Virus record (IMG/VR): IMGVR_UViG_3300025150_000002
Span: 32,001 to 96,000 of that record
Source: a virus
Lineage: Duplodnaviria; Caudoviricetes
DNA: 64,000 nucleotides
Reading direction: 5' to 3' (one strand)
Under the pieces are notes generated by a model. That model searched no databases and had not been told where the DNA came from. It saw only the letters and a program-made list of their open reading frames with translations. The position numbers were made by a program, and so were the translations under genes. Shown here piece after piece: positions 19,790 through 62,796 of the stretch (its first letter is position 1; the number at the start of each line of letters is the position of its first letter).

Positions 19790-21475
19790 GTGAGTGATGC
19801 AGAATACGGTGAAGAGGTCAACATGAGCGCCAACGACGCGATTAGCATGATCCTGCACAATTCCACTGGTAAGCGCGCCAGTGGGCGAGAGATGTTGGTC
19901 TCCGAGAAGCGCTCGATCTTGGACCCCAAGATTGCCGCTGGCCTAAGGGAGCAGTGGAATAGTGCCGGTCGCGATAACGCGAAGGTGTTGATGCACCTGA
20001 CCGAGAACGACGGTGCAAATTCCTTCTACGTCACCGGTTGGGACGGCAAGGACAAGTTCGTGGCTCTCACCGAGTCCGGCCTAACCTATGTCGACTACCG
20101 GAAGCTGGAGAAGATGGCGCATGACGCCGACTGGAACCCAGAGACCCGACTGATCGAGGTCCGCACTCCTCTTCTTCGTGAGAACATGGAGCGGACCGAC
20201 ATCGACATGCTCTTGGATCGTATCAAGAAGACGTTGACCAAGAGCAACAAGACGCGGCGAAAGAGCCGTCTCCGGAACATGGGGAAGTTCTTCGACGTGT
20301 CTGTAGTCGAGTCCGACACCAACGCGGAGAAGGCGGCCAACTCGGGCCCAGATTCCGAGATGGAGTTCGAGAAGGTCAAGGAAAAGGACGACCGTGTCCC
20401 TGAGGGGCCTAAGGCACCGAGCACGACTAAGCTTCCAACGGGACGCTTCAAGGAGTCCTTCAGCTGGGATCAGCTAGACGCCAACGGTCGCCCGGTTCGC
20501 CGTGGCCTGCAACATCCTTGGATGGAGTCCAACAAGACCGAGCCTCAACTCGACAAGCGTCAGCATGTCCGTCAGAACTCAGAGGGGTCAGGCGGCTCCG
20601 GCTCCGGCACCCCAGGTGGTAACAAAACCGACGCACAGTTGAGCGATCGCGAGCAGATCGATGTTCGGAGTGAGTCGAACCAGACTCAGCCTCAGCTCGA
20701 TAAGCGTCAACATGTGCGCCTGAACAAGGAGAGCGGCCCCAGTTGTGGCGTTACTCTTGGCGGTAACAAGACCGACGCTCAGCTGACCGACCGTGAGCAG
20801 GTCGATGTAAGGAGCGAGGCTCAGTCACTGGGCGCGAAGGACTCGTCCGATCGTTCGGACGATGAGGATACGACGACCTATGCTGGGGAGACCGGCAAGG
20901 ACAAGGAGTTCTCATCCCGTCCGAAGATCGCGGTTCGGCATGAGGCCCTGAACCTGAAGAGCAAGGGCAAGAGTCTCTTCGGCCCGGATGCTTCAAAGAA
21001 GGCCCCCATGGGTGCCAAGAAGCCCCTTCTGATGCTCGTGCTCATGAGTAAGGGAAAGAAGGCTCCGAAGCGGACCATGTCCGAGGGAACCACCTTCTGC
21101 CCACGCTGCGCGGGAACCCACGCCGACGACGGTCACCCCAAGGCGAAGTTCGGCCCCATGCGCGGCCTGTTTCCCGCTCCTCCCAAGACGAGGCCCGGTC
21201 AGGCACCCGAGGAGTCGTGCCCGACCTGCGCGGCTAAGCGGGCACAGACCGGTGGAGGCCTGAAGCTCAGGCTGCAGATGGGCAAGAAGCCACCGAGCAC
21301 TTTCGAGTCACGTCTAAACCGCTCCTCACTTCGTCTGGCCGAGGGCAAGATGCCTGAGTCCTTTTTGGCTAACATCGAGAAGATGCGCGCCAAGGGAAAA
21401 GGATCGGCCGACAAGAGCGGTGCTCCAGCCTTCGGCAAGAAGAAGAGTAAGTTCAACCTCAGCAAGGGTCTCTAG
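19790..21475 (+). CDS. hypothetical protein, probable head-internal protein with internal duplication
   Basis: 561 aa; many xxE-S/G motifs; 48-49 aa duplication. Confidence 0.7.
   Translation: MSDAEYGEEVNMSANDAISMILHNSTGKRASGREMLVSEKRSILDPKIAAGLREQWNSAGRDNAKVLMHLTENDGANSFYVTGWDGKDKFVALTESGLTYVDYRKLEKMAHDADWNPETRLIEVRTPLLRENMERTDIDMLLDRIKKTLTKSNKTRRKSRLRNMGKFFDVSVVESDTNAEKAANSGPDSEMEFEKVKEKDDRVPEGPKAPSTTKLPTGRFKESFSWDQLDANGRPVRRGLQHPWMESNKTEPQLDKRQHVRQNSEGSGGSGSGTPGGNKTDAQLSDREQIDVRSESNQTQPQLDKRQHVRLNKESGPSCGVTLGGNKTDAQLTDREQVDVRSEAQSLGAKDSSDRSDDEDTTTYAGETGKDKEFSSRPKIAVRHEALNLKSKGKSLFGPDASKKAPMGAKKPLLMLVLMSKGKKAPKRTMSEGTTFCPRCAGTHADDGHPKAKFGPMRGLFPAPPKTRPGQAPEESCPTCAAKRAQTGGGLKLRLQMGKKPPSTFESRLNRSSLRLAEGKMPESFLANIEKMRAKGKGSADKSGAPAFGKKKSKFNLSKGL
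20525..20815 (+). repeat. tandem duplication (147 + 144 bp) within CDS
   Basis: ESNKTEPQLDKRQHVR...GGNKTDAQLSDREQIDVRS followed by ESNQTQPQLDKRQHVR...GGNKTDAQLTDREQVDVRS. Confidence 0.9.
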
Positions 21476-40272: not shown

Positions 40273-40794
40273 TCAGGTTACCGGCGTGCCTGGGATGACC
40301 TCTACATTATTAACCGACATCGTGAGTGACTCGATGGATACGTCACTTGAGGAGGCATCCATGTTCGTTGACGGGGTCCACCCCTTAGGAACGCAGCCAA
40401 ACAGGTTGTAAACCCGTCTGGGAATCAACTTATCGCGGCCCGTCTGCACGACCGTGAAATTCCGACGAGGGGCACCTGTTCCCCACACCGCCTGGAAGAG
40501 CCACAGGTAGAAGTCCATAGAAAGCGATGTGACTGCAGATTCGATCGTACAATCACCAGCTTTCAGGAACCCAAGGGGAACCTCGTGGGCCCACGGCCAA
40601 TTTCCTTCCTGAATCGTCTTCGTCTGCATGGTGACGTTCGGGATGGAGATGGACTTGAAGCTCAGCAATTGTCCCTCGGAGGCTCCCTGGCCGACCTTGA
40701 ATGGAAACGCCACAGGCAGCAGGCTGATCGTGGGAATGTCCAGCAGGTAGAACGAGTAGTTCTGGAGTGGATCTGTGTCTTCGGCTCTAGCCAT
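40273..40794 (-). CDS. tail tube protein paralog (T4 gp19-like)
   Basis: MARAEDTDPLQNYSF...FKSISIP...EGN...FNLFGCVP..W..ST.MDASSSDVSIESL. Confidence 0.85.
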   Translation of the reverse strand: MARAEDTDPLQNYSFYLLDIPTISLLPVAFPFKVGQGASEGQLLSFKSISIPNVTMQTKTIQEGNWPWAHEVPLGFLKAGDCTIESAVTSLSMDFYLWLFQAVWGTGAPRRNFTVVQTGRDKLIPRRVYNLFGCVPKGWTPSTNMDASSSDVSIESLTMSVNNVEVIPGTPVT

Positions 40795-41070: not shown

Positions 41071-41850
41071 GTGCCTCTGGAGATCACCAAGCGGTCCATC
41101 AACCGCCGGCTGATCAACGGCGGTGGCGGGCAGATCGTCCAGATGGGCATCGTCCGTGACCGTCAGGGTAACGAGATCATCCAGATGAACATCCCCGACG
41201 GGGAGGACATCAACGTGCGGGCGCTCGGGGCCGACCCTGAGCACCAGCAAGTCGTGATGATGGTCCACGAGCCCGACCGGAAGATCACCGAGCGGCGGTG
41301 GAACTCCGGGACGAAGCAGTTCGAGAACGCGACCATCAAGGTCCCCGGTGGGAAGCGCCGCTTCCTGGTGGGGATGGACGAGTGCCACCTCTTCATCGCC
41401 CAGATGCCCAACACGGCTGGGGCGACCTCGGTCAAGCAGGCTCACGAGGACCTGCGGCCCCGGGGCGTGCCGAAGGGCCGCAAGGCCAAGAAGCAGAAGG
41501 TGAAGCGGACCGGAGAGTGGTTCTTGACGCCCGCGAGCTCCGAGGAGCTCAAGGCGATCGAGGACCACATCAAGGTCTATGGCATCCGCAAGAAGGTTGG
41601 GATCGGGTCTCACCTGGGCCGCATGCGGGGTCGCCCGCACGTGGTCAGCGAGTCCGTCGTCGTCGGGTTCCGCACCCGCATCGAGGACCCCACGACTGGT
41701 CAGCACCGGATCCTGGTGGCCCGCCGGGGGACGGAGTACGTCCGGGGCCGGATCCTCCACCCCGACCACAAGGTGGTCGATGTGAAGGTCTGGTCCAAGG
41801 TGACCATGAACGCCGAGGACCGGGCCGCCGGGGCCCAGTGGGTGGATTAG
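41071..41850 (+). CDS. conserved-looking hypothetical protein (start uncertain)
   Basis: Frame open from 40987; FLVGMDECHLF, RTGEWF and YVRGRILHPDH motifs; very GC-rich third positions. Confidence 0.75.
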   Translation: MPLEITKRSINRRLINGGGGQIVQMGIVRDRQGNEIIQMNIPDGEDINVRALGADPEHQQVVMMVHEPDRKITERRWNSGTKQFENATIKVPGGKRRFLVGMDECHLFIAQMPNTAGATSVKQAHEDLRPRGVPKGRKAKKQKVKRTGEWFLTPASSEELKAIEDHIKVYGIRKKVGIGSHLGRMRGRPHVVSESVVVGFRTRIEDPTTGQHRILVARRGTEYVRGRILHPDHKVVDVKVWSKVTMNAEDRAAGAQWVD

Positions 41851-41893: not shown

Positions 41894-42271
41894 TTAGATG
41901 CTGGCCAATCGGTCGAGGACGGTGGTATCGATCAGGCCGGCGATAACCACCTTGGCGAGAGGGTACGGCTCAACAGGATCTTCGGCCACCAACACCTCAT
42001 TCTCCATGTTGTCCAGATTCAGCCAGACCGGGATTTTGAAGAGCGAGCCGACCCGCGCCACCATTTGGCCAGGCGTGGACAGCCGGTCCGCAAACCACAC
42101 TCGTGGGGCAGAGACCTCAAGTATGGACGCTATTTCGGCGCTAACAACGAAAACAGCATCCTTATTACCGGCCTCACGGAACGCCAACAGCATGAATTGT
42201 GGCAACTGCCTGCAGTGCTCTTGCAGCGCGACGCCAGAAGGGGGTGTGTAACGCCAAGATACGGTGATCAT
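41894..42271 (-). CDS. small protein resembling a T4 gp23-type capsid A-domain fragment; paralog of 43235
   Basis: GNKDAVFVVSAEIASIL...VGSLFKIPVWLN...EVLV; ends VLDRLASI. Confidence 0.6.
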   Translation of the reverse strand: MITVSWRYTPPSGVALQEHCRQLPQFMLLAFREAGNKDAVFVVSAEIASILEVSAPRVWFADRLSTPGQMVARVGSLFKIPVWLNLDNMENEVLVAEDPVEPYPLAKVVIAGLIDTTVLDRLASI

Positions 42272-42798
42272 TTGTCTTGGTAGCGGAACTTGAGGTGATC
42301 GTAGGTCAACAAGTTAAACTCGGGCGTGTTTGGGCTGATGGGCAGCAACGGTGTTGGGTCAAGCAAGTCGCCGGGCGGTTGATCCGTGATCCGCCACCAA
42401 CCAGTCGCCCGAGCGCCAGACCGCATAAGCTCCAAATGAAGCATGACCATCGGTCGGCCTTTGAACCGTTGAAGAACGGGTGCCACATAACCGATAATGT
42501 CACCCTGCTCGACGGATGCACCGACCTTTAGCCCTGTCGTAACCTCACCGTAGACGACCACACCGCTCGCACCCTCGACGAGTACAGCATCTGTAGGACA
42601 CCACCAAGACGACCCGGCCTTCTCGCCGGTGAAAGGCTCGATGTTGACTACCAAGCCTCTTTCTACAGCAACAACCGGAGTGCCAACCTCGCAGTAAAGG
42701 TCTACCCCGGTGTGCCGGTCGAACCGCCTCAAGGCGCCAAAAGAACCAGCGTTATCAGGCAACAGCGGATCAGCGAGTAGCGGCCAAATCCAGCTCAC
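42268..42798 (-). CDS. M23/LytM family peptidase-like protein
   Basis: HTGVD (HxxxD), GTPVVAVERG, GASVEQGDIIG, MLHLE. Confidence 0.8.
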   Translation of the reverse strand: MSWIWPLLADPLLPDNAGSFGALRRFDRHTGVDLYCEVGTPVVAVERGLVVNIEPFTGEKAGSSWWCPTDAVLVEGASGVVVYGEVTTGLKVGASVEQGDIIGYVAPVLQRFKGRPMVMLHLELMRSGARATGWWRITDQPPGDLLDPTPLLPISPNTPEFNLLTYDHLKFRYQDK

Positions 42799-43997: not shown

Positions 43998-45143
43998 CTA
44001 GTTAACCACCAGCTCCACCACGATCTTCTTGGCGTAGTAGTTGATGAGACTATGGCTAACTCCGAGCTCGTGGGCGATGTTCTTCTGGGTCTTACCGTCA
44101 GCTAGTAGACCAGGGATGGATGCGATCTGCTCTGTCGTGAGCTTGGCATTCCCGTGCCTTTGAATCAGACTGGGAAGTCCCCAGGCGCAGCCGCGCAGGA
44201 TCGCAGAAATCTGCGCCGGTGTCACTCCATACTCGACAGCCAGTTGCTTACCGGTGACCTGACTGGCTGACTTAAGACCCTTCTGGTATCTGGTTCTGAT
44301 CTCATCAACCTGTGCACGGCTCAGCTTTGCCATACCGTGGCTGTCGCCTCTAGGTCGGTTTGATGGGTTTGCCTTGAGCGCGGCTTGCATTTTATCGATG
44401 TTACGCCTAGCGTAATCTGGATCCCTGTTCCACGGGTGTCTCTCGCCGCGCAGCACCTTCTCTGGATACTTGCGCGTCCAGTGATCATCGCCGGTGGGTG
44501 CGGTCTGGCCGCCATCAGCGTCGTTGGTCAGAAGGTTCAATCCTATTGAACTGATGTGCTCGACTTCGAGCTTCAGCGCCTCGGACTCGGTGAGCTTCTC
44601 GGCAATCCTGCGCTCAGCAGGACTGAGCCCCATCTTGAGCAGCTTGCGGATCACAGAGAACTTATGACCCTTCTTTCCCTTCTTCGCCTTCCTGATGTGA
44701 TCGCCGATCCTCGGGCAGTGCCGATCCGAGCCCTTACCCACGTAGAACACCTTGTTGGTGTCTGGTCGGATCAACTCGTAGACGTAGTAGATAGGGGTCG
44801 GATCAAGGTCTGGCGAGTCAGGGTCTGCCTGCTGATGGACCCTTGGCCGGGAGACTCCTCTACGGGAGCACCGTACACCTTGCTGCTCCCTCAATCCATC
44901 AATGAGCGTGTTCGCAGAATCCTTATCCAGGTTGGTAGCCTTTACCTCCTGGACAGGTGCAATCCCACGAGAGCGGAGGAGTCTCACCTCGTCATACCTG
45001 CGACCGGACGCCCCTGTGGCGGCCTCGTTGATGAGCCTGGTAAGACTGCTGTTCTTATGGGACTTGGCGGATTGTCTAGCAACGTGAATGACCCGACCGT
45101 CAGTCGGGTCATTCAGCGCGACCACCGAATAGCGTAACGACAT
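43998..45143 (-). CDS. free-standing GIY-YIG homing endonuclease with C-terminal DNA-binding modules
   Basis: YYVYELIRPD...FYVGKG...RI..H...EAL.LE catalytic domain; degenerate copy of it at the N-terminus; GDDHW, GERHPW, GDSHG..KL repeats and HTH. Confidence 0.85.
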   Translation of the reverse strand: MSLRYSVVALNDPTDGRVIHVARQSAKSHKNSSLTRLINEAATGASGRRYDEVRLLRSRGIAPVQEVKATNLDKDSANTLIDGLREQQGVRCSRRGVSRPRVHQQADPDSPDLDPTPIYYVYELIRPDTNKVFYVGKGSDRHCPRIGDHIRKAKKGKKGHKFSVIRKLLKMGLSPAERRIAEKLTESEALKLEVEHISSIGLNLLTNDADGGQTAPTGDDHWTRKYPEKVLRGERHPWNRDPDYARRNIDKMQAALKANPSNRPRGDSHGMAKLSRAQVDEIRTRYQKGLKSASQVTGKQLAVEYGVTPAQISAILRGCAWGLPSLIQRHGNAKLTTEQIASIPGLLADGKTQKNIAHELGVSHSLINYYAKKIVVELVVN

Positions 45144-45169
45144 GTGAGCCCCAGTATTACTGGTCTCAC
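45144..45169 (-). promoter_or_regulatory. hairpin occluding the GIY-YIG start region
   Basis: GTGAG-a-CCAGT-aat-ACTGG-gg-CTCAC immediately followed by ATG. Confidence 0.55.
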
Positions 45170-45220
45170 TCTGGTCGCGTCAGGCTGGAAATTCAACCTA
45201 AATTCGAGACCTTCTCGTAA

Positions 45221-46005
45221 CTACGTTACTACCAACTCGATGGAAACTTCCTCAACCGCAAGACTGAGCTCCTGGATCGCGACATCGGAGCTCGATGCAT
45301 CCTTGTCACCGGTCGGCTTGACAGAGGTCGGGAAGACCTCCTTCAGCTGGATCACCTTCGACGGCGAACCGTCGATGCCGAACTCGTCGGCGATGTGGTA
45401 CTCCTGGATGGTGATGTCAGAGCGGTAGGTCTCCCCACCGTTGATGCACTTGAAAATCCAGACCAGGAAGTCCGACTCCTTCTTCACGACGCCCTTGCTC
45501 AGAGAGCAATCGCCGACCTTCGGAATCCCCGGATACTTCCGGGTGTACTTATAGACACCCTCACGGTACTCGACCATGTCGACCGTGAGGTCCGGAATGC
45601 TGGCCGTCCGGAACCCGGCCACAGGGTCCAGGTTCCCGCCGGCCGGGTCGACGACGTGGAAGCGGAAGTTCGTTATGTTACGAGTTGGTCGCACCCACCA
45701 ACTCTCCTCGACTTTCACCGAGGCCCAGACTATATCATCACCCTTTCTGGGGTGCCGCGCACTTCGGGCTCGCTTGAGCCCTACTCCCTTACGGGATAGT
45801 CGTTGAACCTTCCACAGAGCTTGTGGCTTGGCTGCTGATTATCCAATTCCTGAACTTTTCAAGCCTTCACGTTTGATCTTCCGATCTCCGCAGTGGCATC
45901 AGGACTCTAAGGACTTCCCAGCAATTCACGCAGTTTTCGCTACCGGATCACTCCGGTAGGCCACTATTCCTAATGGTACAAGTCGGTGTCAACAGCACGT
46001 GCCAT
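45221..46005 (-). CDS. tail tube protein (T4 gp19-like), two exons: join complement(45973..46005, 45221..45670), 160 aa
   Basis: AAAGGAG RBS, exon 1 MARAVDTDLYH, exon 2 NFRFHV...VEYREG...RKYPG; spliced N-terminus matches paralog MARAEDTDPLQNYSF. Confidence 0.9.
45671..45972 (-). mobile_element. group I intron (302 nt, ORF-less, IA2-like)
   Basis: 5' exon ends in U and intron ends in G; P1 with U.G pair and GGAA loop; P2 (GUGA loop); P AAUUGCUGGGAA; Q AAUCAGCAGCC; R UUCAACGACUA; S GAUAUAGUCU; P7.1, P7.2, P8, P9 (GAAA), P9.1 all pair. Confidence 0.93.
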
Positions 46006-46032
46006 GACGATCTCCTTTGATCGAGTTTCAAA

Positions 46033-46875
46033 CTACGAACAAACCCTGTCTGACCGACCATCGGCCAACACGCCACGTCGTTTGAGTTCCCAGTAGTCCC
46101 AGATCTGTAGGTTCAGATCTGGACGGCTCTCTTGAAGAGCCTTGATCTTCTTCATCTGTTCTGGACTCTCGACCCCCTTGACATCGACCACGGTGGTATC
46201 AGCACCGTCGTAGATCCAGAAGTCGGGGGTATAGCGTTTGGGCCTGTCGTCGACCTCGACCTCGTAGGTGACAAGCTCGTAGTCCCACGACATTCCCTGC
46301 TCATCAAGCCAACTCGCCATTCCAAGTTCCCAAGTTGACCGCATTTTGAACTTACGGCCGAGCTTGTCTGTGAAACTTAGTCGTGGACCACCACCCCATG
46401 CCGCTGGTCGCATACCCACACCGTTGCGCGATAGGACAAGACAGATAGCGGATTGGGAGGTGCCGTAGCGACGAGATAGGGCAATTGTGTCCTCGCCGCC
46501 CAAGTAAAGCCGGACCATCTCCGACTCTTCGGCATCAGACCACCGCCTGTTACGGGTGCCTGTCCTATCGACGTCCACACCTTGCTTGTGGAGAGTTTTG
46601 TAGACGCAATCAGGCTTAACGTCCATCTTCGCAGCGATGTCGGGCCCGGATACTCCCTGGTTGTAGAGCTCAACCATCTGCATCTGCTGTTTCTTTGTGG
46701 TCTTGATATGAGTCAAGTTCTTATACAGTAGCTTGACGCCGAGCTTCTTTGCGCGACAACGCGTCGTCGACTGGTCCCGGTCAAGCTGTTCGGCACACCA
46801 CTTCCCTCCGCGAGTAGGGTAGTTCTCGCGGATGAAAGAATCGTCAGAAGTGATCCAAGGGCGTCCCATCCTCAA
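46033..46875 (-). CDS. HTH + PD-(D/E)xK (TnsA-N-like) free-standing endonuclease
   Basis: MRSTWE...WLDE..MSWDYE...YTPDFW...VDVKG; several N-terminal HTH repeats. Confidence 0.8.
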   Translation of the reverse strand: MRMGRPWITSDDSFIRENYPTRGGKWCAEQLDRDQSTTRCRAKKLGVKLLYKNLTHIKTTKKQQMQMVELYNQGVSGPDIAAKMDVKPDCVYKTLHKQGVDVDRTGTRNRRWSDAEESEMVRLYLGGEDTIALSRRYGTSQSAICLVLSRNGVGMRPAAWGGGPRLSFTDKLGRKFKMRSTWELGMASWLDEQGMSWDYELVTYEVEVDDRPKRYTPDFWIYDGADTTVVDVKGVESPEQMKKIKALQESRPDLNLQIWDYWELKRRGVLADGRSDRVCS

Positions 46876-46973
46876 CTCGAAAGATCTGTGTCAACGGCTC
46901 TGGCCATGTCGTCTCCTGCTTGCGCCTTCAGTCTACCGTGTTGGCAGAGGCTGCATCACTCGCGCATCACGAG

Positions 46974-46988
46974 TGAGTCTAGCAGAAT
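46974..46988 (+). promoter_or_regulatory. TGAGTCT-N3-AGAAT motif copy 4
   Basis: TGAGTCTAGCAGAAT, intergenic, between two minus-strand genes. Confidence 0.5.
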
Positions 46989-47022
46989 CGTAGCATGTGG
47001 TCCAGGCTATCGATGCTCCGAA

Positions 47023-47526
47023 TTATCTACGCCACTTGGTCCAGGCGGACTTGTTACCGACCAAGTGCTCCAACTGATGAATAAGCTGCACGAACCGTGG
47101 GTTGCAGAGCGGTGTCAAACCCCCCTGAGGTGCTCTCAACCTCTGAACACGTTCAACCGCTTGCTGCGGGCCCATGCCAGCGACCTTCATCAAGGTGAGC
47201 GCTGAAACCAGTGAGGACCTGTTCAAGCCCATGGCACAAGACGAAAGACATGACTTCCCATCGCGGAGACGATCGCTGAACAGATCAGACGCCTTGTCGG
47301 CGCGCACTGCGGTCTGCGTCAGCTCGTCTTTCTCTGCCTGTGGGTTGTCGTCGTAGCCCATTTTGATGAGCTCGTAACTACCGCTCGGGTCGTTCGGCTG
47401 GTACTCCTGGGCAAAGAGCCCGATTACGTGAATCCGGCCATCTGGTTGGCGCAAAAGCTGGGTTACATCGGTCAGGTCACCCTGCCAAAGTTGCGCACCA
47501 GACCTATGAGTGAAAAGTCGATCCAT
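47023..47526 (-). CDS. dual-specificity / tyrosine phosphatase
   Basis: CX5R loop CAMGLNRS; LCNPRF. Confidence 0.85.
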   Translation of the reverse strand: MDRLFTHRSGAQLWQGDLTDVTQLLRQPDGRIHVIGLFAQEYQPNDPSGSYELIKMGYDDNPQAEKDELTQTAVRADKASDLFSDRLRDGKSCLSSCAMGLNRSSLVSALTLMKVAGMGPQQAVERVQRLRAPQGGLTPLCNPRFVQLIHQLEHLVGNKSAWTKWRR

Positions 47527-47590
47527 GTCCTAATTGTATCCGGGGTGTAAGCTAACCAAGGGCGCATCAGCGCTCAATGCTGAATCCTGA

Positions 47591-48100
47591 ATGCTGAACG
47601 GGGGTGCGGTGCCGACAGACAGGAGAATGTTGTTCATCGAAGCCCTGGCAGGGATATCTGCTAAGCCTACTCGACGCAGGCGCGGAAGCGCTAGGTGCTA
47701 CGGGCCACCGTGTGAAATCAACGACTGTCCTGGTCAGACAGTGGGCAACAAGCCTTACTGTCTCGATCACGTTCACCTCATGCCCTACGCGGCCAAAATC
47801 CAGGAACGCGAGGCCGCCAGAGATGTCGAAATCGCGAGCGCAGACGGTCCGCCACTAGATGGGTTCGTCGCCCAAGACCTTCTCGGCGCGATCAAGCTGA
47901 CGCAGTCATCCATACCAGCCCTTGCTCGTGATCTTCGTGTGCCGCAAAAGGTCGTGGACAAGCTGGTGCGACAGCTCATAAAACTCGGCAAGGTTAGGAT
48001 TCGTCGGTCGAAGCGCAGCGTCTACGTGATCCGTATTCCAGACCCTAGCGACGATTTTCCTGGATCAGCCGTAGAACCTCCGGACGAATCGAGCGAGTGA
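47591..48100 (+). CDS. zinc-finger + winged HTH DNA-binding protein
   Basis: CEINDC...YCLDH; SIPALARDLRVPQKVVDKLVRQLIKLGKV. Confidence 0.6.
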   Translation: MLNGGAVPTDRRMLFIEALAGISAKPTRRRRGSARCYGPPCEINDCPGQTVGNKPYCLDHVHLMPYAAKIQEREAARDVEIASADGPPLDGFVAQDLLGAIKLTQSSIPALARDLRVPQKVVDKLVRQLIKLGKVRIRRSKRSVYVIRIPDPSDDFPGSAVEPPDESSE

Positions 48101-48347
48101 ACCACTCCCCCCGATGACGCCACTCGGCGAACCGAAGGTGCAGCTGCCGCTCAGTTGTGCCGGTCCCATCATCGGCGACGATCACGCCTAGAAGGCGCAG
48201 CTCGCAATCAGAACCGGTCTGAAGCTGCGCAACCCGCGAGCTCACGGATCCCGTGGTAAACCCGACCTTGATTCGGCCGGTCTCGACGTTCTCCAGGAAA
48301 TAGACCTTGGTCATTCGATTCGAGATTGCCGGGTAGAAGAGGTTCAT
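48045..48347 (-). CDS. GIY-YIG T5orf172/MUG113-like protein
   Basis: VYFLE...RIKVGFT...RVAQLQTG...ERQLHLRF...GEWF; start at 48347 or the next Met. Confidence 0.8.
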   Translation of the reverse strand: MNLFYPAISNRMTKVYFLENVETGRIKVGFTTGSVSSRVAQLQTGSDCELRLLGVIVADDGTGTTERQLHLRFAEWRHRGEWFTRSIRPEVLRLIQENRR

Positions 48348-48506
48348 GACTTCTTCTACCAGAATACCGGATCCTGCGGATCGAAACCCCACCCTGACGA
48401 ACGACCAGTTGCGGCTCTACTTGCGGCCCGAGTCCTGCATCAGCTTCGCGCTGCAGGCTGTGGTCCGCGAGCTTCTGGAGCGCGCGCTGAAGGAGGTGAT
48501 CGCCCG

Positions 48507-49442
48507 ATGAAGAACTTCGTAACCGATGAGCTGATCTTCATGACGGTGGCCGGCAGCCGCATGTACGGCACCAACATCGCCACGTCGGACGTCGACAAGC
48601 GAGGTGTCTGCGTCCCACCTAAGAAGGTGGTCTACGGGTTCGCCAGAAACTTCAATCAACAGGAGTTTCCCAACGAAGACACGGTGGTGTTTTCGCTGAT
48701 GAAGTTCATGCAGCTTGCAGCTGATGCGAATCCAAACGTCATCGAGCTGCTGTTCGCGCCCGACGACTGCGTCGAGGTGTGCCACCCCACATGGGGGCGC
48801 CTGCTGGAGAGGCGAAACCTCTTCCTCACGGCCAAGGCCTATCACACCTTCACCGGCTACGCGCACAGCCAGCTCAAGCGGATCAATGGTCACAGGGCGT
48901 GGCTGATGAACCCACCGACACACAAGCCTACTCGCGAGGAGTACGGCTTGACGGAGGCGGGACAGGGCGTGCGCGATCTGGCCCGTGGTATCGACCTCTC
49001 CGAGATCAGCCCGGAGACCCTCCAGATCATCGAGAGGGAGAAGGCCTACAAGGCTGCCCTGACCACCTGGAACCAATACGAGAAGTGGAAGACGGAGCGA
49101 AACAAGGACCGGGCCGCGCTAGAGGCGGCCCACGGATTCGACGTCAAGCACGCTATGCACCTGATGCGGCTCCTTCGGATGGGAAAGGAGATTCTGACCA
49201 CAGGATCGCTTCACGTTCGTCGGCCCGACGCCGCCGAGCTACTGGCGATACGCGCCGGTGAGTGGAGCTACGACAGGTTGGTCGGAGAGGCTGAGACTCT
49301 CAAGGCCGAGCTTGACGAGGTATACGAGAACAAGACTTACGTGGTACCCTTCGGGGCCCCACACCAGGAGATCTCGGACTTCTGCATCGAGCTCCACGAT
49401 TACCACTGGGCGAACCACGCCAAGAGCGCCGAGGACGAGTGA
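48507..49442 (+). CDS. nucleotidyltransferase, DNA polymerase beta superfamily (phage RNA-repair-type)
   Basis: AGSRMYGT...SDVDKRGV, NPNVIELLF, FDVKHAMHLMRLL, ELLAIRAGE. Confidence 0.85.
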   Translation: MKNFVTDELIFMTVAGSRMYGTNIATSDVDKRGVCVPPKKVVYGFARNFNQQEFPNEDTVVFSLMKFMQLAADANPNVIELLFAPDDCVEVCHPTWGRLLERRNLFLTAKAYHTFTGYAHSQLKRINGHRAWLMNPPTHKPTREEYGLTEAGQGVRDLARGIDLSEISPETLQIIEREKAYKAALTTWNQYEKWKTERNKDRAALEAAHGFDVKHAMHLMRLLRMGKEILTTGSLHVRRPDAAELLAIRAGEWSYDRLVGEAETLKAELDEVYENKTYVVPFGAPHQEISDFCIELHDYHWANHAKSAEDE

Positions 49443-49446
49443 GGCT

Positions 49447-49632
49447 GTGAGAAACCTTCAGCATCTCAAAGAGCCGGACCTCAAACCTGACCGCTTAGAG
49501 GCCTGGAGAGCTTTTCAGGCTGCGCTCGCCGAGGCGCGAACCAAACTAGCCGCTCTCTCCGCTCGCACACCAGGTGGGGTAAGCGAGAGATGTTGGGCAG
49601 GGCTCTACGAGGCCGACCTGTGGTCGAGGTAA
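49447..49632 (+). CDS. small hypothetical protein
   Basis: GTG-started 61-aa ORF filling the gap. Confidence 0.4.
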   Translation: MRNLQHLKEPDLKPDRLEAWRAFQAALAEARTKLAALSARTPGGVSERCWAGLYEADLWSR

Positions 49633-49654
49633 CCCACCTTACAAGGAGAATACG

Positions 49655-50248
49655 ATGAAGCCTGGGCTCTACGACATGGTTCGCGTCACCGACCAGACCG
49701 GTGTCTCCGGTACGGGCCGCGTTGCCCAGGTAGCGGTCTTCGAGGACGGTTCTGCCGTCGTGAGGTGGATGACGGGGAAGGACTCCACCGTCTGCTGGGC
49801 CAAGGTCCAAGACGCACTGGACGTTCACATCAACTGTCACCCCGATACAACCAAGCTTATCCCGGTGGGGGCCCTTCGGGAGCAGCACCAGAGTCCACGA
49901 GAGGTCGACGAGTCTGCCAGGTGGGCCGCGATCCGTGACGTCGACAGGCGAACTACTAAGGCCATCTACGACTGGTGTGCCTCCCGTGCGGTCCGGTGCA
50001 AGGAGCACAATAGTCACGGGCTCTACTTCGATGTCTGGGTGGGGACCAAGCAGATCATGTTCGACTGCTCGCCCGAGGACATCTCCCACGAGCTACGGCG
50101 CGGCAAGGGCATCGTCGTCGTACGTGACGCGTCCCACGGTTGGGACAACATGAGGATCTACGGAACCATCAACATGTTGGACAACGACGCTGGCCGAACG
50201 CTGGACATCTGGCTTGGATGTGGAGAGGAGCGGATCGAGAAGGACTAA
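49655..50248 (+). CDS. hypothetical protein
   Basis: AAGGAG RBS; DQTGVSGTGRVA...F.DG..VVRW N-terminal motif. Confidence 0.75.
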   Translation: MKPGLYDMVRVTDQTGVSGTGRVAQVAVFEDGSAVVRWMTGKDSTVCWAKVQDALDVHINCHPDTTKLIPVGALREQHQSPREVDESARWAAIRDVDRRTTKAIYDWCASRAVRCKEHNSHGLYFDVWVGTKQIMFDCSPEDISHELRRGKGIVVVRDASHGWDNMRIYGTINMLDNDAGRTLDIWLGCGEERIEKD

Positions 50249-50294
50249 CTCGATGCATCCGACACCAGACTCCTTACGGTCAAAGGACAGCTAG

Positions 50295-50636
50295 ATGGGA
50301 GCTCAAGTGCATATTCGGTTGGAGAACTGCGGCCAGCGGAAGATCCAGGTCATCAAGGACTTGCGGACCGCCTACGGGTTCAACCTCGTGACGGCCAAGT
50401 CTTGGGCCGACAAGGCGCCGTGCATCTTGCCCGCGACTCCACCTGGAGTGGCCGGTAAGCTGATCAAGGATCTGCGGGACAGCGGGGCGACGGTTTCTGT
50501 GGTCGACCCGTCGGTGTTGGACCAGATGGCGGCGGTGTCCTTCATCCAGTCGGCTGCGGCCTCTCTTGGAGAGGGCGATCTGGCAGAGACCCGGACCGCA
50601 CTGAGAGCCGCGCTTGCTCTGGTTGGCGATGTCTGA
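50295..50636 (+). CDS. ribosomal protein bL12 (L7/L12) C-terminal domain homolog
   Basis: GQRKIQVIKDLRTAYGFNLVTAK...AP.IL...A..LI..L...GATV aligns to the L7/L12 CTD [23 protein letters not shown]. Confidence 0.8.
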   Translation: MGAQVHIRLENCGQRKIQVIKDLRTAYGFNLVTAKSWADKAPCILPATPPGVAGKLIKDLRDSGATVSVVDPSVLDQMAAVSFIQSAAASLGEGDLAETRTALRAALALVGDV

Positions 50637-50973
50637 GGACTACGACTGCCAGGCCTGCGGGGCGTGTTGCATCTCCAACTGGGACACCGAGACCTACATC
50701 TATGTCTCGGACAACGACATCAGGCGCCTCCGGATGGCATATGCCGAGCCGACCGTTAAGCGCCTCGTTGGCGGACTGGACGATCCCATGGAGCAAGGAA
50801 TACGCACCAAGAAGAACACCCAGGGCCACATCGCCTGCATTGCACTGCGCGGCGCTGTAGGAAAGCGGTGCTCGTGCGGAATCTACGAGGCACGGCCCAA
50901 GGTGTGCCGAGGCTTTAAGCCGGGGTCAGAGTCGTGCCAGTATGCCCGCCAAGAGGCGGGCATTGACACCTAG
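50629..50973 (+). CDS. YkgJ-family CxxCxxCC cluster protein
   Basis: DCQACGACC...CIAL...CSCGIYEARPKVCRGF. Confidence 0.85.
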   Translation: MSEDYDCQACGACCISNWDTETYIYVSDNDIRRLRMAYAEPTVKRLVGGLDDPMEQGIRTKKNTQGHIACIALRGAVGKRCSCGIYEARPKVCRGFKPGSESCQYARQEAGIDT

Positions 50974-51272
50974 CCTTGTTGAACCGCCGACCTGGGAAGT
51001 CGCCAGTAGGTTCCATCAGAACGCGCTTGCAGGATGGAGCCGCTCCCTACGTTGTAGGTCTGGTCCAGCCTGTCGATCTCCACCTGGGCCGCGAGCGCCT
51101 TCATCCGGGCGAGCTCGACCTGTAGGTCAGCTACCAGTGATCGGAGGTTCGCCGCCTCGGCGGTTACCTCCCGCAGCCGGGCTGCAAGAAATACAGACGC
51201 ATCGACCTGAACAGGGACATCGGCGGACGCCGGTGACAAGCCCTCCTGCGCGGTGGTCGTATTCTGGTCCAT
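50970..51272 (-). CDS. small coiled-coil protein
   Basis: 100-aa ORF with heptad segment. Confidence 0.6.
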   Translation of the reverse strand: MDQNTTTAQEGLSPASADVPVQVDASVFLAARLREVTAEAANLRSLVADLQVELARMKALAAQVEIDRLDQTYNVGSGSILQARSDGTYWRLPRSAVQQG

Positions 51273-51350
51273 CTATCACTCCGAGGGTAAGTCCGCCCGC
51301 ACATTGAGGGCGGCCGTTTAGTGTTTAGGCTTCGGCAGACGTTGTGCCAA

Positions 51351-53408
51351 CTACGCCATCAGTCCGAGGTCTCGGAGCGTTGTTCTGATCGTATTGATCT
51401 TAGCAGTCAGATCCGAGAAGTTGTCGTTGATGGTAGCGTCGTCCCCTGTACCAGCTACGGCCACGACCGTGTCGTTAGCCGTGCCGCCAGTACTGTCTGT
51501 TAGCGCCACCATATCCACCGGCTGGGCGACTAGGGCTGCTCCGAAAAACCCAACCTGAGTTGATGTAAGCCGATGAAAATCGGCTCCGATGACCGCGCTG
51601 GTCCCGAAATACCCGGTGCGTGGGCGAGTGGCGCCATCTGCGCCGATGTCGTAGGTGTCGTCTGCTACCGCCAACAGGTGACCGGAGTTTGTGACCTGCC
51701 AGCGGCCAACCCCGGCCGTGTCTAGCTGAACTCGCCCGTGGGTTCCACCTCCGGCGGCTATACCACCGCGAACAAACGCGTTGGCACCGTGGTTATTGTT
51801 GGAGACGCCGTCCCCGCCCTTGAGAATACCGTCGGCGGCCAGACTAACCAGCGTGGCGCTGGCATCACCTCCGCTAAAGGTGCCGGTCCCGGACACCCCG
51901 CCTACAGCGTCTGTGACCCCTCCTCTTACCACCAGAGGTCCGGCGGTGGTTCCGGGCCCTCCCTCAACGGTGACTGCGCCTCCGGTAATACTAGGGCCAG
52001 CACCACCGACCACCAAAACAGCGCCGCCTCCAGCGGCACCGGATCCACCTCTGATCTCAGCTAACCCACCAACGCCGGACGCACCACCGCTACCACCTCG
52101 AAACCGGCTAGCGCCGCCAGCCCCGGTGGTTAGCCCATTACCGGCGATGAGGTCAAGACTGGCTCCGTCGACGGTGGCGCTGATGGAATCGACACCACGA
52201 ATAGTGGTGACCGCCCCCTCTAGTCCGATGTTCAGTTGTAGTCCGGCTGGATCCCAGTGGACCAGATTTGACCCGTCACTGGCGGCGAATTCCCCTGGCG
52301 CGTTAGCAACAGATGTCGATCCGATATTCAACCAGTTTGTGATCGATACGCCCTCACCCACAATCACCTGCGTGGACAGTACCTGTTGGGTGTTACCAGG
52401 CGCTCCGGCGGGCGCAGTTCGGAGCTGGATGGTGCTTGGTGTGGCGTTGCCGGTCCCAGGGCCCGCGACGATGATAAGGTCAGACCCAGCCTCGTTGGTT
52501 TGAGCAGTACTGATCCTAGAGGACGAGACGGTTACCGATTGAGCGGTGGTGCCCACCTCACCCTTACCGAGGTAGAAAACAGCGATCGGGTTTGACTGCG
52601 ACCCGAACACGAACTGGTTTACGGCCGTGGTGGCGGCGCCCGCACCCCAGGCGTGCGCTCCGTCGAACGTCGATGCGGCCCCACGTCCCCACGCAGAGCT
52701 GTCGACACCCGAAGCTCCCGCGCCGTATCCGACCGCTTGAGCTCCGGCCGCCGTGGCCGAACTGCTAGCCCCGACAACCACTGTCTCAATGGCTGTGGCG
52801 GACGATGATCGGCCGGAGGCTACGCTATCCTGCGCGGCGGCGGCGCTGCTTCCAACGGCAACGCTAAAATCACCAGAAGTGGAGGCGCCGGCTCCGATGG
52901 CCGTCGAGTTGGCAAAGGGAGTTGACGCCGCGTTTCCGACCGCCAGCGAAGACGCTCCAGCAGCAACAGACCCCAGTCCAAACCGCTCGCTTGAGCCCCC
53001 GGCGCCAGGTGAACTAATGGCGCCGTTTACGACCAGGAGTCCGGTCGTAAATCCTCCAGGCGCGGCATCAATGGTGAACTTGACGGTGCCTGAAGGCGAT
53101 GCCAACCCAGCGCTCACCTGATCTGCGTCATTGACCAGACGAACCAGCGACCCGGTGTCGTGCCACCCCGCGTCCACGCCTGGGCCCGTGGGCCCCTCTG
53201 GACCCGCCACAACGGTGAACCCGGTCGCTGGCGGACCAACAGTTTCGGTGATTTTGTTCGCTGCTAGAAGCCGAGCTACGGATGGGTTGCTCGACAGCGA
53301 TGTGAAAACGGCGCCCGGTGCATAGCTCGTCGACCCGTAACCATCTACCTCTTCCACGACGACGGGGAGTGGGGAGACCACAAGGTATGTCGTAAGCACT
53401 GCTTGCAT
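51351..53408 (-). CDS. fibre/adhesin-like virion protein with YadA-head-type repeats and Gly-rich beta-helix
   Basis: STAIGAGA, SVAVGSSA, AQAVGYGA, SSAWGRGA repeats; GG.G..GG repeats. Confidence 0.75.
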   Translation of the reverse strand: MQAVLTTYLVVSPLPVVVEEVDGYGSTSYAPGAVFTSLSSNPSVARLLAANKITETVGPPATGFTVVAGPEGPTGPGVDAGWHDTGSLVRLVNDADQVSAGLASPSGTVKFTIDAAPGGFTTGLLVVNGAISSPGAGGSSERFGLGSVAAGASSLAVGNAASTPFANSTAIGAGASTSGDFSVAVGSSAAAAQDSVASGRSSSATAIETVVVGASSSATAAGAQAVGYGAGASGVDSSAWGRGAASTFDGAHAWGAGAATTAVNQFVFGSQSNPIAVFYLGKGEVGTTAQSVTVSSSRISTAQTNEAGSDLIIVAGPGTGNATPSTIQLRTAPAGAPGNTQQVLSTQVIVGEGVSITNWLNIGSTSVANAPGEFAASDGSNLVHWDPAGLQLNIGLEGAVTTIRGVDSISATVDGASLDLIAGNGLTTGAGGASRFRGGSGGASGVGGLAEIRGGSGAAGGGAVLVVGGAGPSITGGAVTVEGGPGTTAGPLVVRGGVTDAVGGVSGTGTFSGGDASATLVSLAADGILKGGDGVSNNNHGANAFVRGGIAAGGGTHGRVQLDTAGVGRWQVTNSGHLLAVADDTYDIGADGATRPRTGYFGTSAVIGADFHRLTSTQVGFFGAALVAQPVDMVALTDSTGGTANDTVVAVAGTGDDATINDNFSDLTAKINTIRTTLRDLGLMA

Positions 53409-53502
53409 GATGGCCCCAACGGGTGACGCTTTATCGCCTAGTATACACCGTCGGCATCACCTAAATCCGTAGTCCGGAAACCTACTCGGCGGGCTAGAGC
53501 AG

Positions 53503-53727
53503 TTAGTCGTTGATAGGGCCAGGAAAAGTGAACCTCCGATTGCGGTGTGGTCTCCGCACTCGCGCCAACCCGCCCACCGCTGGTGGTAGCCCATCCAGAG
53601 TGTGGATGAAGGCTGGTCCCTGAATAACCCCCGGAACACCTTGAGATTGATGGCTGAACGCAGGGCCTTGAACCAGTCCTGGCGGCCCTTCCGCAAGGTG
53701 GATAAACGCCGGGCCTTGAACAGCCAT
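53503..53727 (-). CDS. small protein with three QGPAF repeats
   Basis: VQGPAFIH / VQGPAFSH / IQGPAFIH. Confidence 0.6.
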   Translation of the reverse strand: MAVQGPAFIHLAEGPPGLVQGPAFSHQSQGVPGVIQGPAFIHTLDGLPPAVGGLARVRRPHRNRRFTFPGPIND

Positions 53728-53729
53728 TC

Positions 53730-55166: not shown

Positions 55167-55690
55167 TAGATTGTCTCCCGGCTATTCACAAGCACAGTAA
55201 ATTGACCTCTAGGACCGAGGCTGAGATAGTCGGCTCCGTCGTTAGACCCGCCGCTGAGGTTAGTGAGCGCCTGAAGTCCAACAGACGATAACCCGTCGCC
55301 GCCGGCCTCAATCGTTACTAGCGCAGCAACAGTTGATGAGACGGCCGCAACAAAATCGGCGGCCGTCGGAGCGATAGATTCACCCGCGCTATCCGTGCCG
55401 AAGATGATGGTAATGGCCGATCCAACTACCGACGCGTTCAGCTCCCGATCTTCGTTTCCAAGGCCGGTGGCGCCGACGAGGTGCTCAACAGTGATGGTGT
55501 TGCCCCACTCGCCACCGCGTGCAGTGTAGGTAACGTCTCCGTTTCCGTCCGATCCAGCCACGACTAGGGAGGCTGAGCTGCCGCCCGTGATGGCATCCGC
55601 CCTCACTGGACCGCGTGTGGTCTTGACCAACTGATCATCTGGGAGCGGACCATGAACATCACGTCCGCAGTTTGTATAGATGTACTGCAT
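55166..55690 (-). CDS. virion protein with a sheath-insertion-domain-like motif
   Basis: TYTARGGEWGNTITV...LSGGSN resembles the sheath FTANGQGVWGNDLKI. Confidence 0.55.
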   Translation of the reverse strand: MQYIYTNCGRDVHGPLPDDQLVKTTRGPVRADAITGGSSASLVVAGSDGNGDVTYTARGGEWGNTITVEHLVGATGLGNEDRELNASVVGSAITIIFGTDSAGESIAPTAADFVAAVSSTVAALVTIEAGGDGLSSVGLQALTNLSGGSNDGADYLSLGPRGQFTVLVNSRETI

Positions 55691-55705
55691 GTTGACCTAT
55701 CTTGG

Positions 55706-56041: not shown

Positions 56042-56049
56042 TATCGCTC

Positions 56050-59865: not shown

Positions 59866-62796
59866 CTAGATGATAGCACTAGTGCTAGCAGTTCCAGCAG
59901 GTTGCGTCAAGTTAAATATGACAAATTCAGCTGGCTTGTTCGGCGAGAAGCCGATGTCGATGATCACCTTGCCCTGATCCATCGTCACCTGGCTGTTGTT
60001 GTTGCCGTTGCACTTGACGAAGAAGGCCTCCTCCTGGGTGTTACCGGAGAAGTACCCCAGACGAAAGAGCGAGCTGTAGTAGCCCCGGAGAGCTGTCTCG
60101 ATCTTCTGCCAGAGCTGCGGCCCGTTGTTCTCGAAAACCGTCCACTGCAGCTGCAGCTTGGTGGTGTACATCAGGAAGATGTGGAGTTGACGAGCGTTGA
60201 CGTAGCGCCAACGAGCCTCCTTCGAGAGGGACCGCGCTCCGTTGACGATGAACCCGGTAGCAACACCCGTTGGGAGAGGGTTGATTCGCGACTGGTAGAG
60301 GTTGTCCTGATCCAAGCGGGAGAGCTTGATCTCCGGTCCGACCGTTCCAGGCGCGTCCAGTGCCCCATCGACGATCCCCGCAGGGCTCTTTCCTACGTTC
60401 TTGTTCCGAGCGGTCTTCGCATAGACGCCAGCGGCGAAGGGCGACGCCGGGATAAGCTCAGGTAGCTCGGTCGAGTCGTTCAGGAAGTAGACGTTCGGGT
60501 AGTAGATGGCCGCGTTCTTGGTGTTGAACGCCTGAGTCACCAGCACGTACTGGATCGCCTCTGGCACCGTCGTTCCGTTCGCTAGCGCAAAGATCCCGAA
60601 CCGATCCTGGCGCGCATCGCAGAAGTCAACGATGTCCGCCTGGACGAAGGCCGAACCCTCGAAGTCTGGGACGACGACGTTGACCGGCTCCTCGATCAGG
60701 TCCAGAGCGTAGATGCCCTGCTTGGACCCCTCAAGGGTTGGGTTCGAGACATCGTTGCGCGTGATGACGGTGCCGTCCGTTCCGCCCGTCATCTGGTACT
60801 GAACCGCCGAGGACAGCTTCGTGTAGGCCGCCGTGATTGGCGTCGAAGCGGGCGGAGGAACAGCCCAAGTGAAGTCCAACGCTCCGGTGTTGTAGTCGAT
60901 CGTGTTCTCACCGGCGGCATCCACGTCCCCCACAATCACACCCAGCCCGTTGTCCTGGGCGTATTGACCGGTGTTGTAGAGCACATCGATCGTAGAACCT
61001 GTGAGAGGGGCGGATGTCGTGGTGAGTGAAACAGCACCGGTATCGGCGTTGATCACCGACGCTGTCGTCACGTCACCAAGCAGGTTGCCGGTCGTGTTGG
61101 CCCACACGTTGCCGAGGGCGATGTAGTCGACGTAGAAGAACGTACCGGCGATCGGGGCTACTAGTGTAGTCACCTCGATCGGTCCGGATCCAACAGACGA
61201 GGCTGTCTGACTATCGACCAGGTCGATAGTGTTGATGCCGCCACCATCAATCGAGCCGAGTAGCGGGACATCAACTTCCAGGTTGTTGAAATAGACCAGG
61301 TCGATGGTCGCCGTACCGCCGGTAGTCACAATCGCGCCGGGCGCGAAAGACCCACCCGCGATGTTACCGACACGGGCCACGCCCGAGGAAAAGGACAGGA
61401 CGTCACCTGTGACAGCACCCTGCGTGAACGTGTCACCGGGGGCGATGGCCCCTACGATAGCGCTGAGCTCCATCGTAGCGACGTTATCCTTGGTGATGAC
61501 GCTGGATACGTCGTGGTTGGCGACTACAGTCGACAGGGCTACAAGCTCGGCGGTGGTGCCGGTTAGAGCCCCAGTGTCGTAATTGACTGTACCGCCGAGA
61601 GGTAGTGCACCACCGGATCCGGTTAGGTTGCCGGCACCGTCGTCGGTGATGGTTGCCAGACCAATGCCATTCACGTTGACAGAGATCGCCAGCGTACCGG
61701 GGTGAACCGGTACGGATGCCAGAGGTGTTCCAGCCAGGCTGTAGGTCGCCGCAGTGCCACCGATGGTGGTTAGTGTCTGCGGCGCGGCCGCAGCACCAGC
61801 GTACTTCAGACGGAAGACCGTAACCTCCCGGTGAACCGGATTGTCTACGACGCCCGCATTGAAGGTGAACTCCTTGTTCGCACCGTCGATCAGTCCAGCA
61901 CTGGCTGGCAGGACCTCGTTCGCCACCGAAGACCGCTGGTAGAAGATCCGAGTGGACCCCTCCACCACAGGCAGATTGGTGAGCTGAAGCTCGAAGGCAG
62001 TGTTGGTGCTGTTGATTGTTCCTGAGGTCGGAGTGGTCGGCACGTGCTTGGTGGTACCGGACACAGCCGTGAGCTTCAGGGTGTTCGAGAGCACCGGCAC
62101 GTTGGCCAGCGATGCGATGAACCGCTGGGCTAGTGGTGCGCCACCACCAGTGCCGATCGACTCTGACAGTACGGTAACTGGAAGCATCGCCGTCGGCGTA
62201 CCGCCGACACCGATGGTCGTGGTCACCAGGAGACTTGGCCGACGGGGATCCTGAATCACGTTCAGGAGGTAGTCGGAGGCCGACGGGTCGTCGAACTGGA
62301 CCGCCTCGTAGGTCTCAACCGCATCGTCGAATGCCGGGTTGAAGTCCGCCGGGGCCAGGATCTGAAGGTCGTACTTCTCCCACGAGTTCGTGGTGTAGTC
62401 GAGGAAGTTCCGGTTACCCGAGACTCGGATCTTGAGGTCGTTACCCCACACACCCTGTCCGTTGGCTGTGAAGGTCCACTTCTCAGGACCAGGCGTCGCG
62501 TCGATGCTGACCGATGCGAAGGTCGAATCAGCCGGTGCAATGCGGTTGATCCAGGCCCTCTCTCCGCCAGTTCCGAAGAACGCCCGGATGGCCTGGGGAA
62601 CCACACCGCGCGTGTTGACCGGACCGAACACGCGAGTGAAGTCCTCAACAGACCTCACCTCGATAGGGTAGTTGGTCGGACCCTTCTGGGTCCAACCTAC
62701 GACGCCCATCTTTGCGGGCGAGAACTGATCGGGTGCGCGGGCCGGCGCCTTCTCCTGCCCGTAGACACCTGCTGACCGGTATTCAACGATCGGCAT
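59866..62796 (-). CDS. tail sheath protein
   Basis: YRSAGVYGQE, VGWTQKGP, FFGTGG..AWI, C-terminal AAIYYP...SPFAAG..A...RINP...GAR.L...WRYVN.R...FE.N...IGFSP.KPAEF. Confidence 0.95.
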   Translation of the reverse strand: MPIVEYRSAGVYGQEKAPARAPDQFSPAKMGVVGWTQKGPTNYPIEVRSVEDFTRVFGPVNTRGVVPQAIRAFFGTGGERAWINRIAPADSTFASVSIDATPGPEKWTFTANGQGVWGNDLKIRVSGNRNFLDYTTNSWEKYDLQILAPADFNPAFDDAVETYEAVQFDDPSASDYLLNVIQDPRRPSLLVTTTIGVGGTPTAMLPVTVLSESIGTGGGAPLAQRFIASLANVPVLSNTLKLTAVSGTTKHVPTTPTSGTINSTNTAFELQLTNLPVVEGSTRIFYQRSSVANEVLPASAGLIDGANKEFTFNAGVVDNPVHREVTVFRLKYAGAAAAPQTLTTIGGTAATYSLAGTPLASVPVHPGTLAISVNVNGIGLATITDDGAGNLTGSGGALPLGGTVNYDTGALTGTTAELVALSTVVANHDVSSVITKDNVATMELSAIVGAIAPGDTFTQGAVTGDVLSFSSGVARVGNIAGGSFAPGAIVTTGGTATIDLVYFNNLEVDVPLLGSIDGGGINTIDLVDSQTASSVGSGPIEVTTLVAPIAGTFFYVDYIALGNVWANTTGNLLGDVTTASVINADTGAVSLTTTSAPLTGSTIDVLYNTGQYAQDNGLGVIVGDVDAAGENTIDYNTGALDFTWAVPPPASTPITAAYTKLSSAVQYQMTGGTDGTVITRNDVSNPTLEGSKQGIYALDLIEEPVNVVVPDFEGSAFVQADIVDFCDARQDRFGIFALANGTTVPEAIQYVLVTQAFNTKNAAIYYPNVYFLNDSTELPELIPASPFAAGVYAKTARNKNVGKSPAGIVDGALDAPGTVGPEIKLSRLDQDNLYQSRINPLPTGVATGFIVNGARSLSKEARWRYVNARQLHIFLMYTTKLQLQWTVFENNGPQLWQKIETALRGYYSSLFRLGYFSGNTQEEAFFVKCNGNNNSQVTMDQGKVIIDIGFSPNKPAEFVIFNLTQPAGTASTSAII

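Follow-up and report, generated by a model that had tools for sequence, protein, structure and literature searches.

A 302-nt group I intron that carries no open reading frame splits a tail-tube gene after codon 11 in the genome of an uncultured groundwater phage of about 203 kb. The window analysed here is a stretch of 64,000 nucleotides (bases 32001-96000) of a 203,521-base IMG/VR virus record, which is estimated to be 89% complete. We consider it about 90% probable that the intron belongs to subgroup IA2, that the tube protein can be made only after splicing, and that the intron is a mobile selfish element residing in a hotspot at the 5' end of its host gene. The sequence evidence shows the fold, the exact boundaries, the selection on fold and exons, and the patchy distribution, whereas catalysis in vivo and the way in which the intron moves are inferred. 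The G+C content of the intron is 53%, and that of the window is 59%.

The interrupted tail-tube gene

The list of open reading frames contains a 165-aa frame at 45221..45718 on the minus strand, with a GTG start and an N-terminus reading MKVEESWW. A sequence-only reading of this DNA had judged that start to be wrong and placed the real one at 46005. Our inspection agrees: the ATG at 46005 is preceded by a Shine-Dalgarno sequence and opens MARAVDTDLYH, which is followed by TAG. The parts of the gene and its paralog are as follows, in window coordinates.

46012..46018, minus strand: Shine-Dalgarno sequence AAAGGAG, 6 nt ahead of the true ATG, read directly
45973..46005, minus strand: exon 1 of the tail-tube gene, 33 nt, MARAVDTDLYH; its last base, U45973, is the U of the P1 U.G pair
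45671..45972, minus strand: group I intron, ORF-less, 302 nt, opening with an in-frame UAG and ending with G45671
45221..45670, minus strand: exon 2 of the tail-tube gene, NFRFHV... to the stop, PF06841
40273..40794, minus strand: uninterrupted PF06841 paralog, a second tube-like protein (Pfam, alignment)

Exon 2 alone matches PF06841, the family of T4 gp19-like tail tube proteins, with 61 bits (cut-off 28.2), and it also matches phrog_4542, a tail tube protein. Joining the two exons gives a 160-aa protein with the predicted N-terminus MARAVDTDLYHNF. This product aligns with the paralog from residue 1 (31% identity, E 1e-25), in keeping with the likeness noted in the sequence-only reading. The corrected gene model is a tube protein of 160 aa starting from MARAVDTDLYH, rather than the 165-aa frame with the GTG start. 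The copies of the gene in relatives have also been truncated by gene callers, as in P0008 with 145 aa.

When the window was searched with all Rfam families at curated thresholds, the single match above threshold was to the group I intron model RF00028. The match lies at 45706..45982 on the minus strand, extends over the full length of the model (positions 1-253 of 253) and reaches 75.1 bits (gathering score 50, E 3e-17). No further RF00028 match occurs elsewhere in the 203.5-kb record. A Six3os1_3 match at 20574..20646 fell far below its cut-off and was set aside as chance.

The splice sites are fixed independently of the RNA model, because orthologous proteins and intronless DNA alleles agree on them. 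A protein search with exon 2 alone returned 102 relatives, mostly of about 160 aa. The closest of these (P0001, P0002, P0004 and P0005) are 87-95% identical, are 160 aa long and start MARAVDTDLYHNFRFHV; their beginning, MARAVDTDLYHNFRFHVVDPAGG, agrees with the predicted ligation product at every residue on both sides of the junction. At the DNA level, the alleles L003 and L004 (94% aa identity) are colinear through the site and read ...TATCAC/AACTTCCGG..., without the 302 nt. Across our metagenome survey, about 25 of the roughly 30 alleles that can be judged are uninterrupted. The boundaries drawn in the sequence-only reading thus coincide with the uninterrupted orthologues at the junction, and the intronless alleles that it proposed to look for do exist.

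Both intron-exon junctions are bridged, with no difference, by contigs of four additional runs (groundwater, aquifer, hot spring), which excludes an assembly error. Near-identical intronless forms were not found over 44900..46400, where four sets of partially matching contigs were all identical and intron-bearing.

Family membership and gene order suggest that the gene encodes the main tube subunit. The sheath gene stands directly before the tube gene in the relatives L005, L054-L056, L058 and L059, and in L005 and other relatives without mobile elements the second PF06841 paralog lies about 1 kb beyond the tube gene. PHROGs gave no matches for ten neighbouring ORFs of the window, so a tblastn search with the sheath of L005 was used to place the sheath gene; none of the six ORFs tested in the sheath-tube interval matches a PHROG. 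Its homologue at 59893..61947 lies about 14 kb upstream of the tube gene. On the assumption that the sheath-tube order of L005 is informative here, tail assembly would depend strictly on the interrupted gene; a second paralog is present.

We notice several further features of this region. The sheath homologue is contained in an ORF at 59866..62796, and the gap between sheath and tube, at 46005-59866, measures about 14 kb. Within it, 47023-47526 (minus strand) has a sub-threshold match to the PF00782 dual-specificity phosphatase family (21.9 bits vs cut-off 33.5), and both L002 and L003 conserve this stretch upstream of their nuclease gene. On the other side, the segment 40795-43234 from the tube region to the paralog holds extra genes that are absent from L003 at the same place, including an M23 peptidase (42268..42798) and a plus-strand ORF of 259 aa (41071..41850).

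RNA fold, subgroup and splicing

The sequence-only reading described a complete group I core in the 302 nt, and every element, from the U.G pair of P1 through P2-P9.1 to the terminal G, is present. The helices are listed below.

45961..45976, minus strand: P1, in which CCAU and the intron bases UA (45976..45971) pair with the guide UAGUGG (45966..45961), loop GGAA
45940..45959, minus strand: P2 hairpin, 8 bp, with compensatory changes in 5 of 8 pairs among five introns
45933..45927 with 45761..45755, minus strand: P3, enclosing P4/P5, P6/P6a, the 5' strand of P7, P7.1 and P7.2
45923..45833, minus strand: P4/P5 with a long P5 extension (model alignment, covariation)
45832..45807, minus strand: P6/P6a (model alignment, covariation)
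45801..45797 (GACUA) with 45732..45728 (UAGUC), minus strand: P7 pseudoknot, the guanosine-binding site
45785..45796, minus strand: P7.1, UCCC GUAA GGGA
45766..45781, minus strand: P7.2, GGGCUC AAGC GAGCCC, with two compensatory and three G-U changes
45754..45739, minus strand: P8 (pair table)
45723..45706, minus strand: P9, with a GAAA loop
45704..45682, minus strand: P9.1, with compensatory changes in 7 of 8 pairs

The thermodynamic fold has a z-score of -4.05 against shuffled sequences. Covariation was assessed with RNAalifold on five introns, all from the same tube-gene family (window, L002, L051, L023 and L057), and compensatory double changes were observed in 34 of the 86 predicted pairs; with three introns, 17 pairs showed such changes. 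The covarying pairs fall in P2, P3, P5 and its extension, P6a, P7.2, P8, P9 and P9.1, and the GACUA/UAGUC pairs of P7 are invariant in the three introns tabulated. The alignment of five sequences dropped P1, as the guide of L057 differs, and drew two small spurious helices, which we disregarded. Broken pairs are few and are concentrated in the peripheral helices, aligned by MAFFT, of the most divergent copies. Several phage lineages thus keep the fold under selection. All five introns retain the U.G pair where P1 meets the 5' splice site, and all end in G.

A P10 helix between the GGAA loop and UUCC of the 3' exon had also been proposed. The window sequence would allow this pairing, which would involve exon positions +4 to +7 and begin 3 nt from the splice site, but its register is not conserved, as the corresponding loop is ACAAG in L002 and AGAGU in L051. 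Because P10 is weak and not conserved, the 3' splice site is defined by the terminal G and the alignment with orthologues.

The Rfam alignment places the insert UCCC-GUAA-GGGA GU AGGGCUC-AAGC-GAGCCC GA between P7 and the 3' strand of P3. An insert of near-identical sequence occupies this model position in the introns of T4 td, T4 nrdD and Twort orf142-I2. Michel and Westhof in 1990 reportedly assigned the combination of P7.1 and P7.2 to IA2 specifically. P7.1/P7.2 are among the features by which group I introns are classed (PMC3984707), and T4 td has been called a group IA2 ribozyme (PMC4498298). The assignment to IA2, td type, which the sequence-only reading had made from the two hairpins, is therefore supported.

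The tube pre-mRNA is probably spliced, and the indirect case for this is strong. The tube proteins of the window and L002 are 89% identical in amino acids, with third codon positions only 55% identical, and most differences among the window, L002 and L051 in the 11 codons of exon 1 are synonymous. In intron-bearing alleles both exons have thus stayed under coding selection. Every intron-bearing allele has a U at position -1 (CAT; GACT in L057). Codon 11 of the intronless alleles is CAC (His) or CTG/TTG (Leu) in all that can be evaluated, with the exception of L043 (CAT). All five introns bring an in-frame stop within their first two codons, an arrangement reported to be frequent in group I introns of phages and bacteria (PMC2504315, PMC3984707). 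We found no conserved alternative start for exon 2 among the relatives, in which gene callers choose different starts.

We propose the following course of splicing. In the folded pre-mRNA, CCAU and the first two intron bases would pair with the guide UAGUGG to form P1, placing U45973 in the U.G wobble. Exogenous guanosine held in P7 would attack after U45973, the terminal G45671 would then occupy the guanosine site, and the exons would be joined as ...UAC CAU/AAC UUC..., yielding the 160-aa tube protein. Since an in-frame UAG stands at the very start of the intron and exon 2 comes without a start of its own, unspliced RNA would give only an 11-residue peptide, so that production of the tube protein would depend on splicing.

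Insertion sites, flanking nucleases and movement

Four further copies of the intron are found in the tube-gene family. Those of L002 and L051 occupy the same site as the window intron at nt 33 of the gene (CCAU/, guide GUGG), and the other two occupy different sites. The L023 copy (2699-3003, the same in L024 and L046) is a related ORF-less intron of 305 nt at nt 48, after codon 16, in the context TTCCAT/GTA; it lies 15 nt downstream of the window site and has the pairing of CCAU/ with guide GUGG in common with it. The L057 copy (453-777) is a related 325-nt intron after nt 25, in phase 1 (GACU/, guide GGUC), whose ligated product is MARAASTDFYLNFRFHV.

The distribution is patchy, with five intron-bearing lineages among about 30 alleles. 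The introns of the window and L002 are 89-93% identical, compared with 81% for exon 2, and this greater likeness of the introns points to exchange after the host genes had diverged. We propose that the intron is a mobile selfish element, which would have been swapped between phage lineages more recently than the tube genes diverged. The tube-gene introns, mutually 64-74% identical (window vs L002 89%), are closer to one another than to members of the lineage in other genes, which reach at most 65%. The idea that the nt-48 intron is specially close to the window intron was rejected, all lineages being about equally distant.

Beyond the tube gene, the exact 31-nt P7-P7.1 core of the window intron occurs in 16 viral contigs. 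In uncultured phages, the genes split by introns with this core encode portal, tail sheath and PhoH-like proteins, the anaerobic RNR large subunit and phrog_4088 (L019, L020, L021, L013, L015, L007 and L018); the core of these introns is identical, whereas host genes and peripheral helices differ. Portal, sheath and tube genes show that this intron lineage is common among the structural genes of such phages. Two introns each, within a few kb, were seen in L015, L007 and L018. Among cultured phages, PhiPA3, Serratia 2050HW and Escherichia phage nepoznato match the intron core with 71-75% identity over about 170-210 nt; the DNA search found no relatives of the host gene in cultured phages, only these matches to the core.

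Nuclease genes abut the tube gene on both sides.

46033..46875, minus strand: free-standing nuclease gene with HTH and PD-(D/E)xK (endonuclease I-like) domains, inserted in the 5' end of the tube gene
46872..46907, minus strand: the tube gene's original 5' end, now orphaned, with its own Shine-Dalgarno sequence, reading MARAVDTDLSS and then a stop
43998..45143, minus strand: free-standing GIY-YIG nuclease gene with C-terminal HTH domains (PF22945, 34.6 bits), directly after the tube gene

The PD-(D/E)xK gene scores 28.4 bits against PF05367, just under the cut-off of 29.1, and matches HTH_23 and the endonuclease family phrog_945; its presence in relatives is mosaic. Its insertion point in the tube gene is at about nt 27, some 6 nt from the intron site. 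The orphaned copy corresponds to the first 9 tube codons; different codons are used for these residues in the working exon 1 at 46005. Variants of this arrangement occur in relatives. L003 has a shorter orphan version, and its nuclease ORF itself begins MARAV. The PD-(D/E)xK ORF of L002 (1801-2700) has no stop of its own and runs in frame through the tube Shine-Dalgarno sequence and exon 1 to the stop at the intron start. In L057, a short PD-(D/E)xK remnant lies between sheath and tube.

On the downstream side, the last codons of the GIY-YIG gene repeat the C-terminus of the tube protein (..ELVVN / ..ELVVT, at 43998-44042 and 45221-45265, minus strand), and the final 33 nt of the two genes are nearly identical in L003 (3418-3450 and 4621-4653). 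It looks as if the GIY-YIG gene was inserted just before the tube stop, duplicating the end of the tube gene.

No linkage between intron and nucleases is apparent among the relatives, as all combinations occur. Both nuclease genes accompany three of the five intron lineages (window, L002 and L023), L057 keeps the remnant, and in L051 the intron stands alone, neither nuclease occurring within 1.6 kb. Both nucleases occur without the intron in L003, L044 and L045, and L039 and L061 are intronless with at least the upstream nuclease.

How the intron reached its sites can be read in more than one way. Collaborative homing is a possible route, to which we give limited credence: a flanking nuclease would cut intronless tube genes near nt 25-48, repair would co-convert the intron, and the intron, by destroying the nuclease target, would protect its carrier. 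The PD-(D/E)xK enzyme is the better candidate, since its own gene was inserted so close to the intron site and left behind the orphaned, differently coded first 9 codons. The presence of both nuclease genes in three intron lineages, with the remnant in a fourth, agrees with this route, and so does the fit with cases described in PMC3984707, in which an ORF-less intron and a free-standing nuclease converge on one site. However, the intron of L051 stands without nucleases and three relatives have both nucleases without the intron. Moreover, no co-conversion tract is visible between the window and L002, exon identity not being raised beside the intron.

Reverse splicing into guide-complementary sites of the same mRNA, followed by reverse transcription and recombination, strikes us as an unlikely route. 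The introns at nt 33 and nt 48 both follow CCAU directly and both use the guide GUGG, and CCAT stands at both positions in L002. The best circumstantial evidence for this route is considered to be the occurrence of related introns at two sites within a single gene, although PMC3984707 also states that the route has never been shown directly. Against it, the guide of the nt-25 intron in L057 is GGUC instead, distances among the four intron lineages are about equal, with no recent hop visible, and a working intron must match its 5' exon whatever its route of insertion.

The first 48 nt of the gene, with one IA2 clade at three sites and a nuclease insertion, might form a natural hotspot shaped by reverse splicing or by immunity against the nuclease; we are rather doubtful of this, though we hold it slightly below homing and above reverse splicing as such. 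If it is true, the hotspot would be a protein-coding phage system in which reverse splicing and nuclease immunity are directly testable. Three alternative sites within 23 nt, beside a nuclease insertion, also offer a compact data set on how ORF-less introns reach new sites.

It is very improbable that the intron is a decayed, non-splicing relic in a pseudogene whose role was taken over by the paralog at 40273..40794: such a paralog is present, and loss of the endonuclease is expected late in the homing cycle of PMC3984707, but every core helix is intact, and compensatory changes affect 34 pairs across the five copies. Where the intron is present, coding selection acts on both exons, and none of the five introns lacks the U at -1 or the terminal G. 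Both paralogs also occur in the intronless relatives L003 and L005, so the second is not a replacement.

Comparison with known introns

The sequence-only reading set the tail-tube host against the DNA-metabolism genes in which most phage group I introns sit, but tail-tube hosts have been described before. In Twort, the product of orf142 is a tail tube protein (PMC11878797), and the prophages of Bacillus weihenstephanensis KBAB4 (pBWB401) and B. cereus B4264 share a tail-tube group I intron (PMC2504315). What our analysis adds is the multi-site hotspot in the 5' end of the tube gene.

One parallel in host gene is Twort orf142, which likewise contains small ORF-less group I introns; in that comparison the RF00028 matches range over 64-101 bits. 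The insert of P7.1/P7.2 between P7 and P3' is shared as well, with nearly the same sequence in I2. In contrast to Twort, a low-GC member of the Herelleviridae with three introns in one gene, the tube genes studied here have one intron per allele, the window comes from a 203-kb phage of 59% GC, and its intron lies only 33 nt into the ORF.

The T4 td and nrdD (sunY) introns resemble the window intron in core architecture and in the in-frame stop at the intron start. The T4 introns carry the endonuclease ORFs I-TevI and I-TevII. The likeness to td and nrdD is near base-for-base in J8/7-P7 (GAUAUAGUCU), in P7.1 (UCCC...GGGA) and in P7.2 (AGGG(C)UCAAG.GA(G)CCC). The T4 introns sit in nucleotide-metabolism genes, whereas the window intron is ORF-less and sits in a virion gene.

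The KBAB4 and B4264 prophages also have introns in tape-measure, terminase and head genes, and many introns of the B. cereus group begin with an in-frame stop or soon reach one (PMC2504315). Their hosts are temperate Bacillus phages, unlike the phage described here.

Collaborative homing has been reviewed for two phage systems (PMC3984707) and described for F-CphI of cyanophage S-PM2 (PMC6083498). The window shares with these systems an ORF-less intron, free-standing nucleases that abut the host gene and a nuclease insertion within 6 nt of the intron site. It differs in that intron and nuclease genes occur independently in relatives. With this intron, a high-GC, uncultured jumbo phage from groundwater would join the phages whose virion genes depend on RNA self-splicing.
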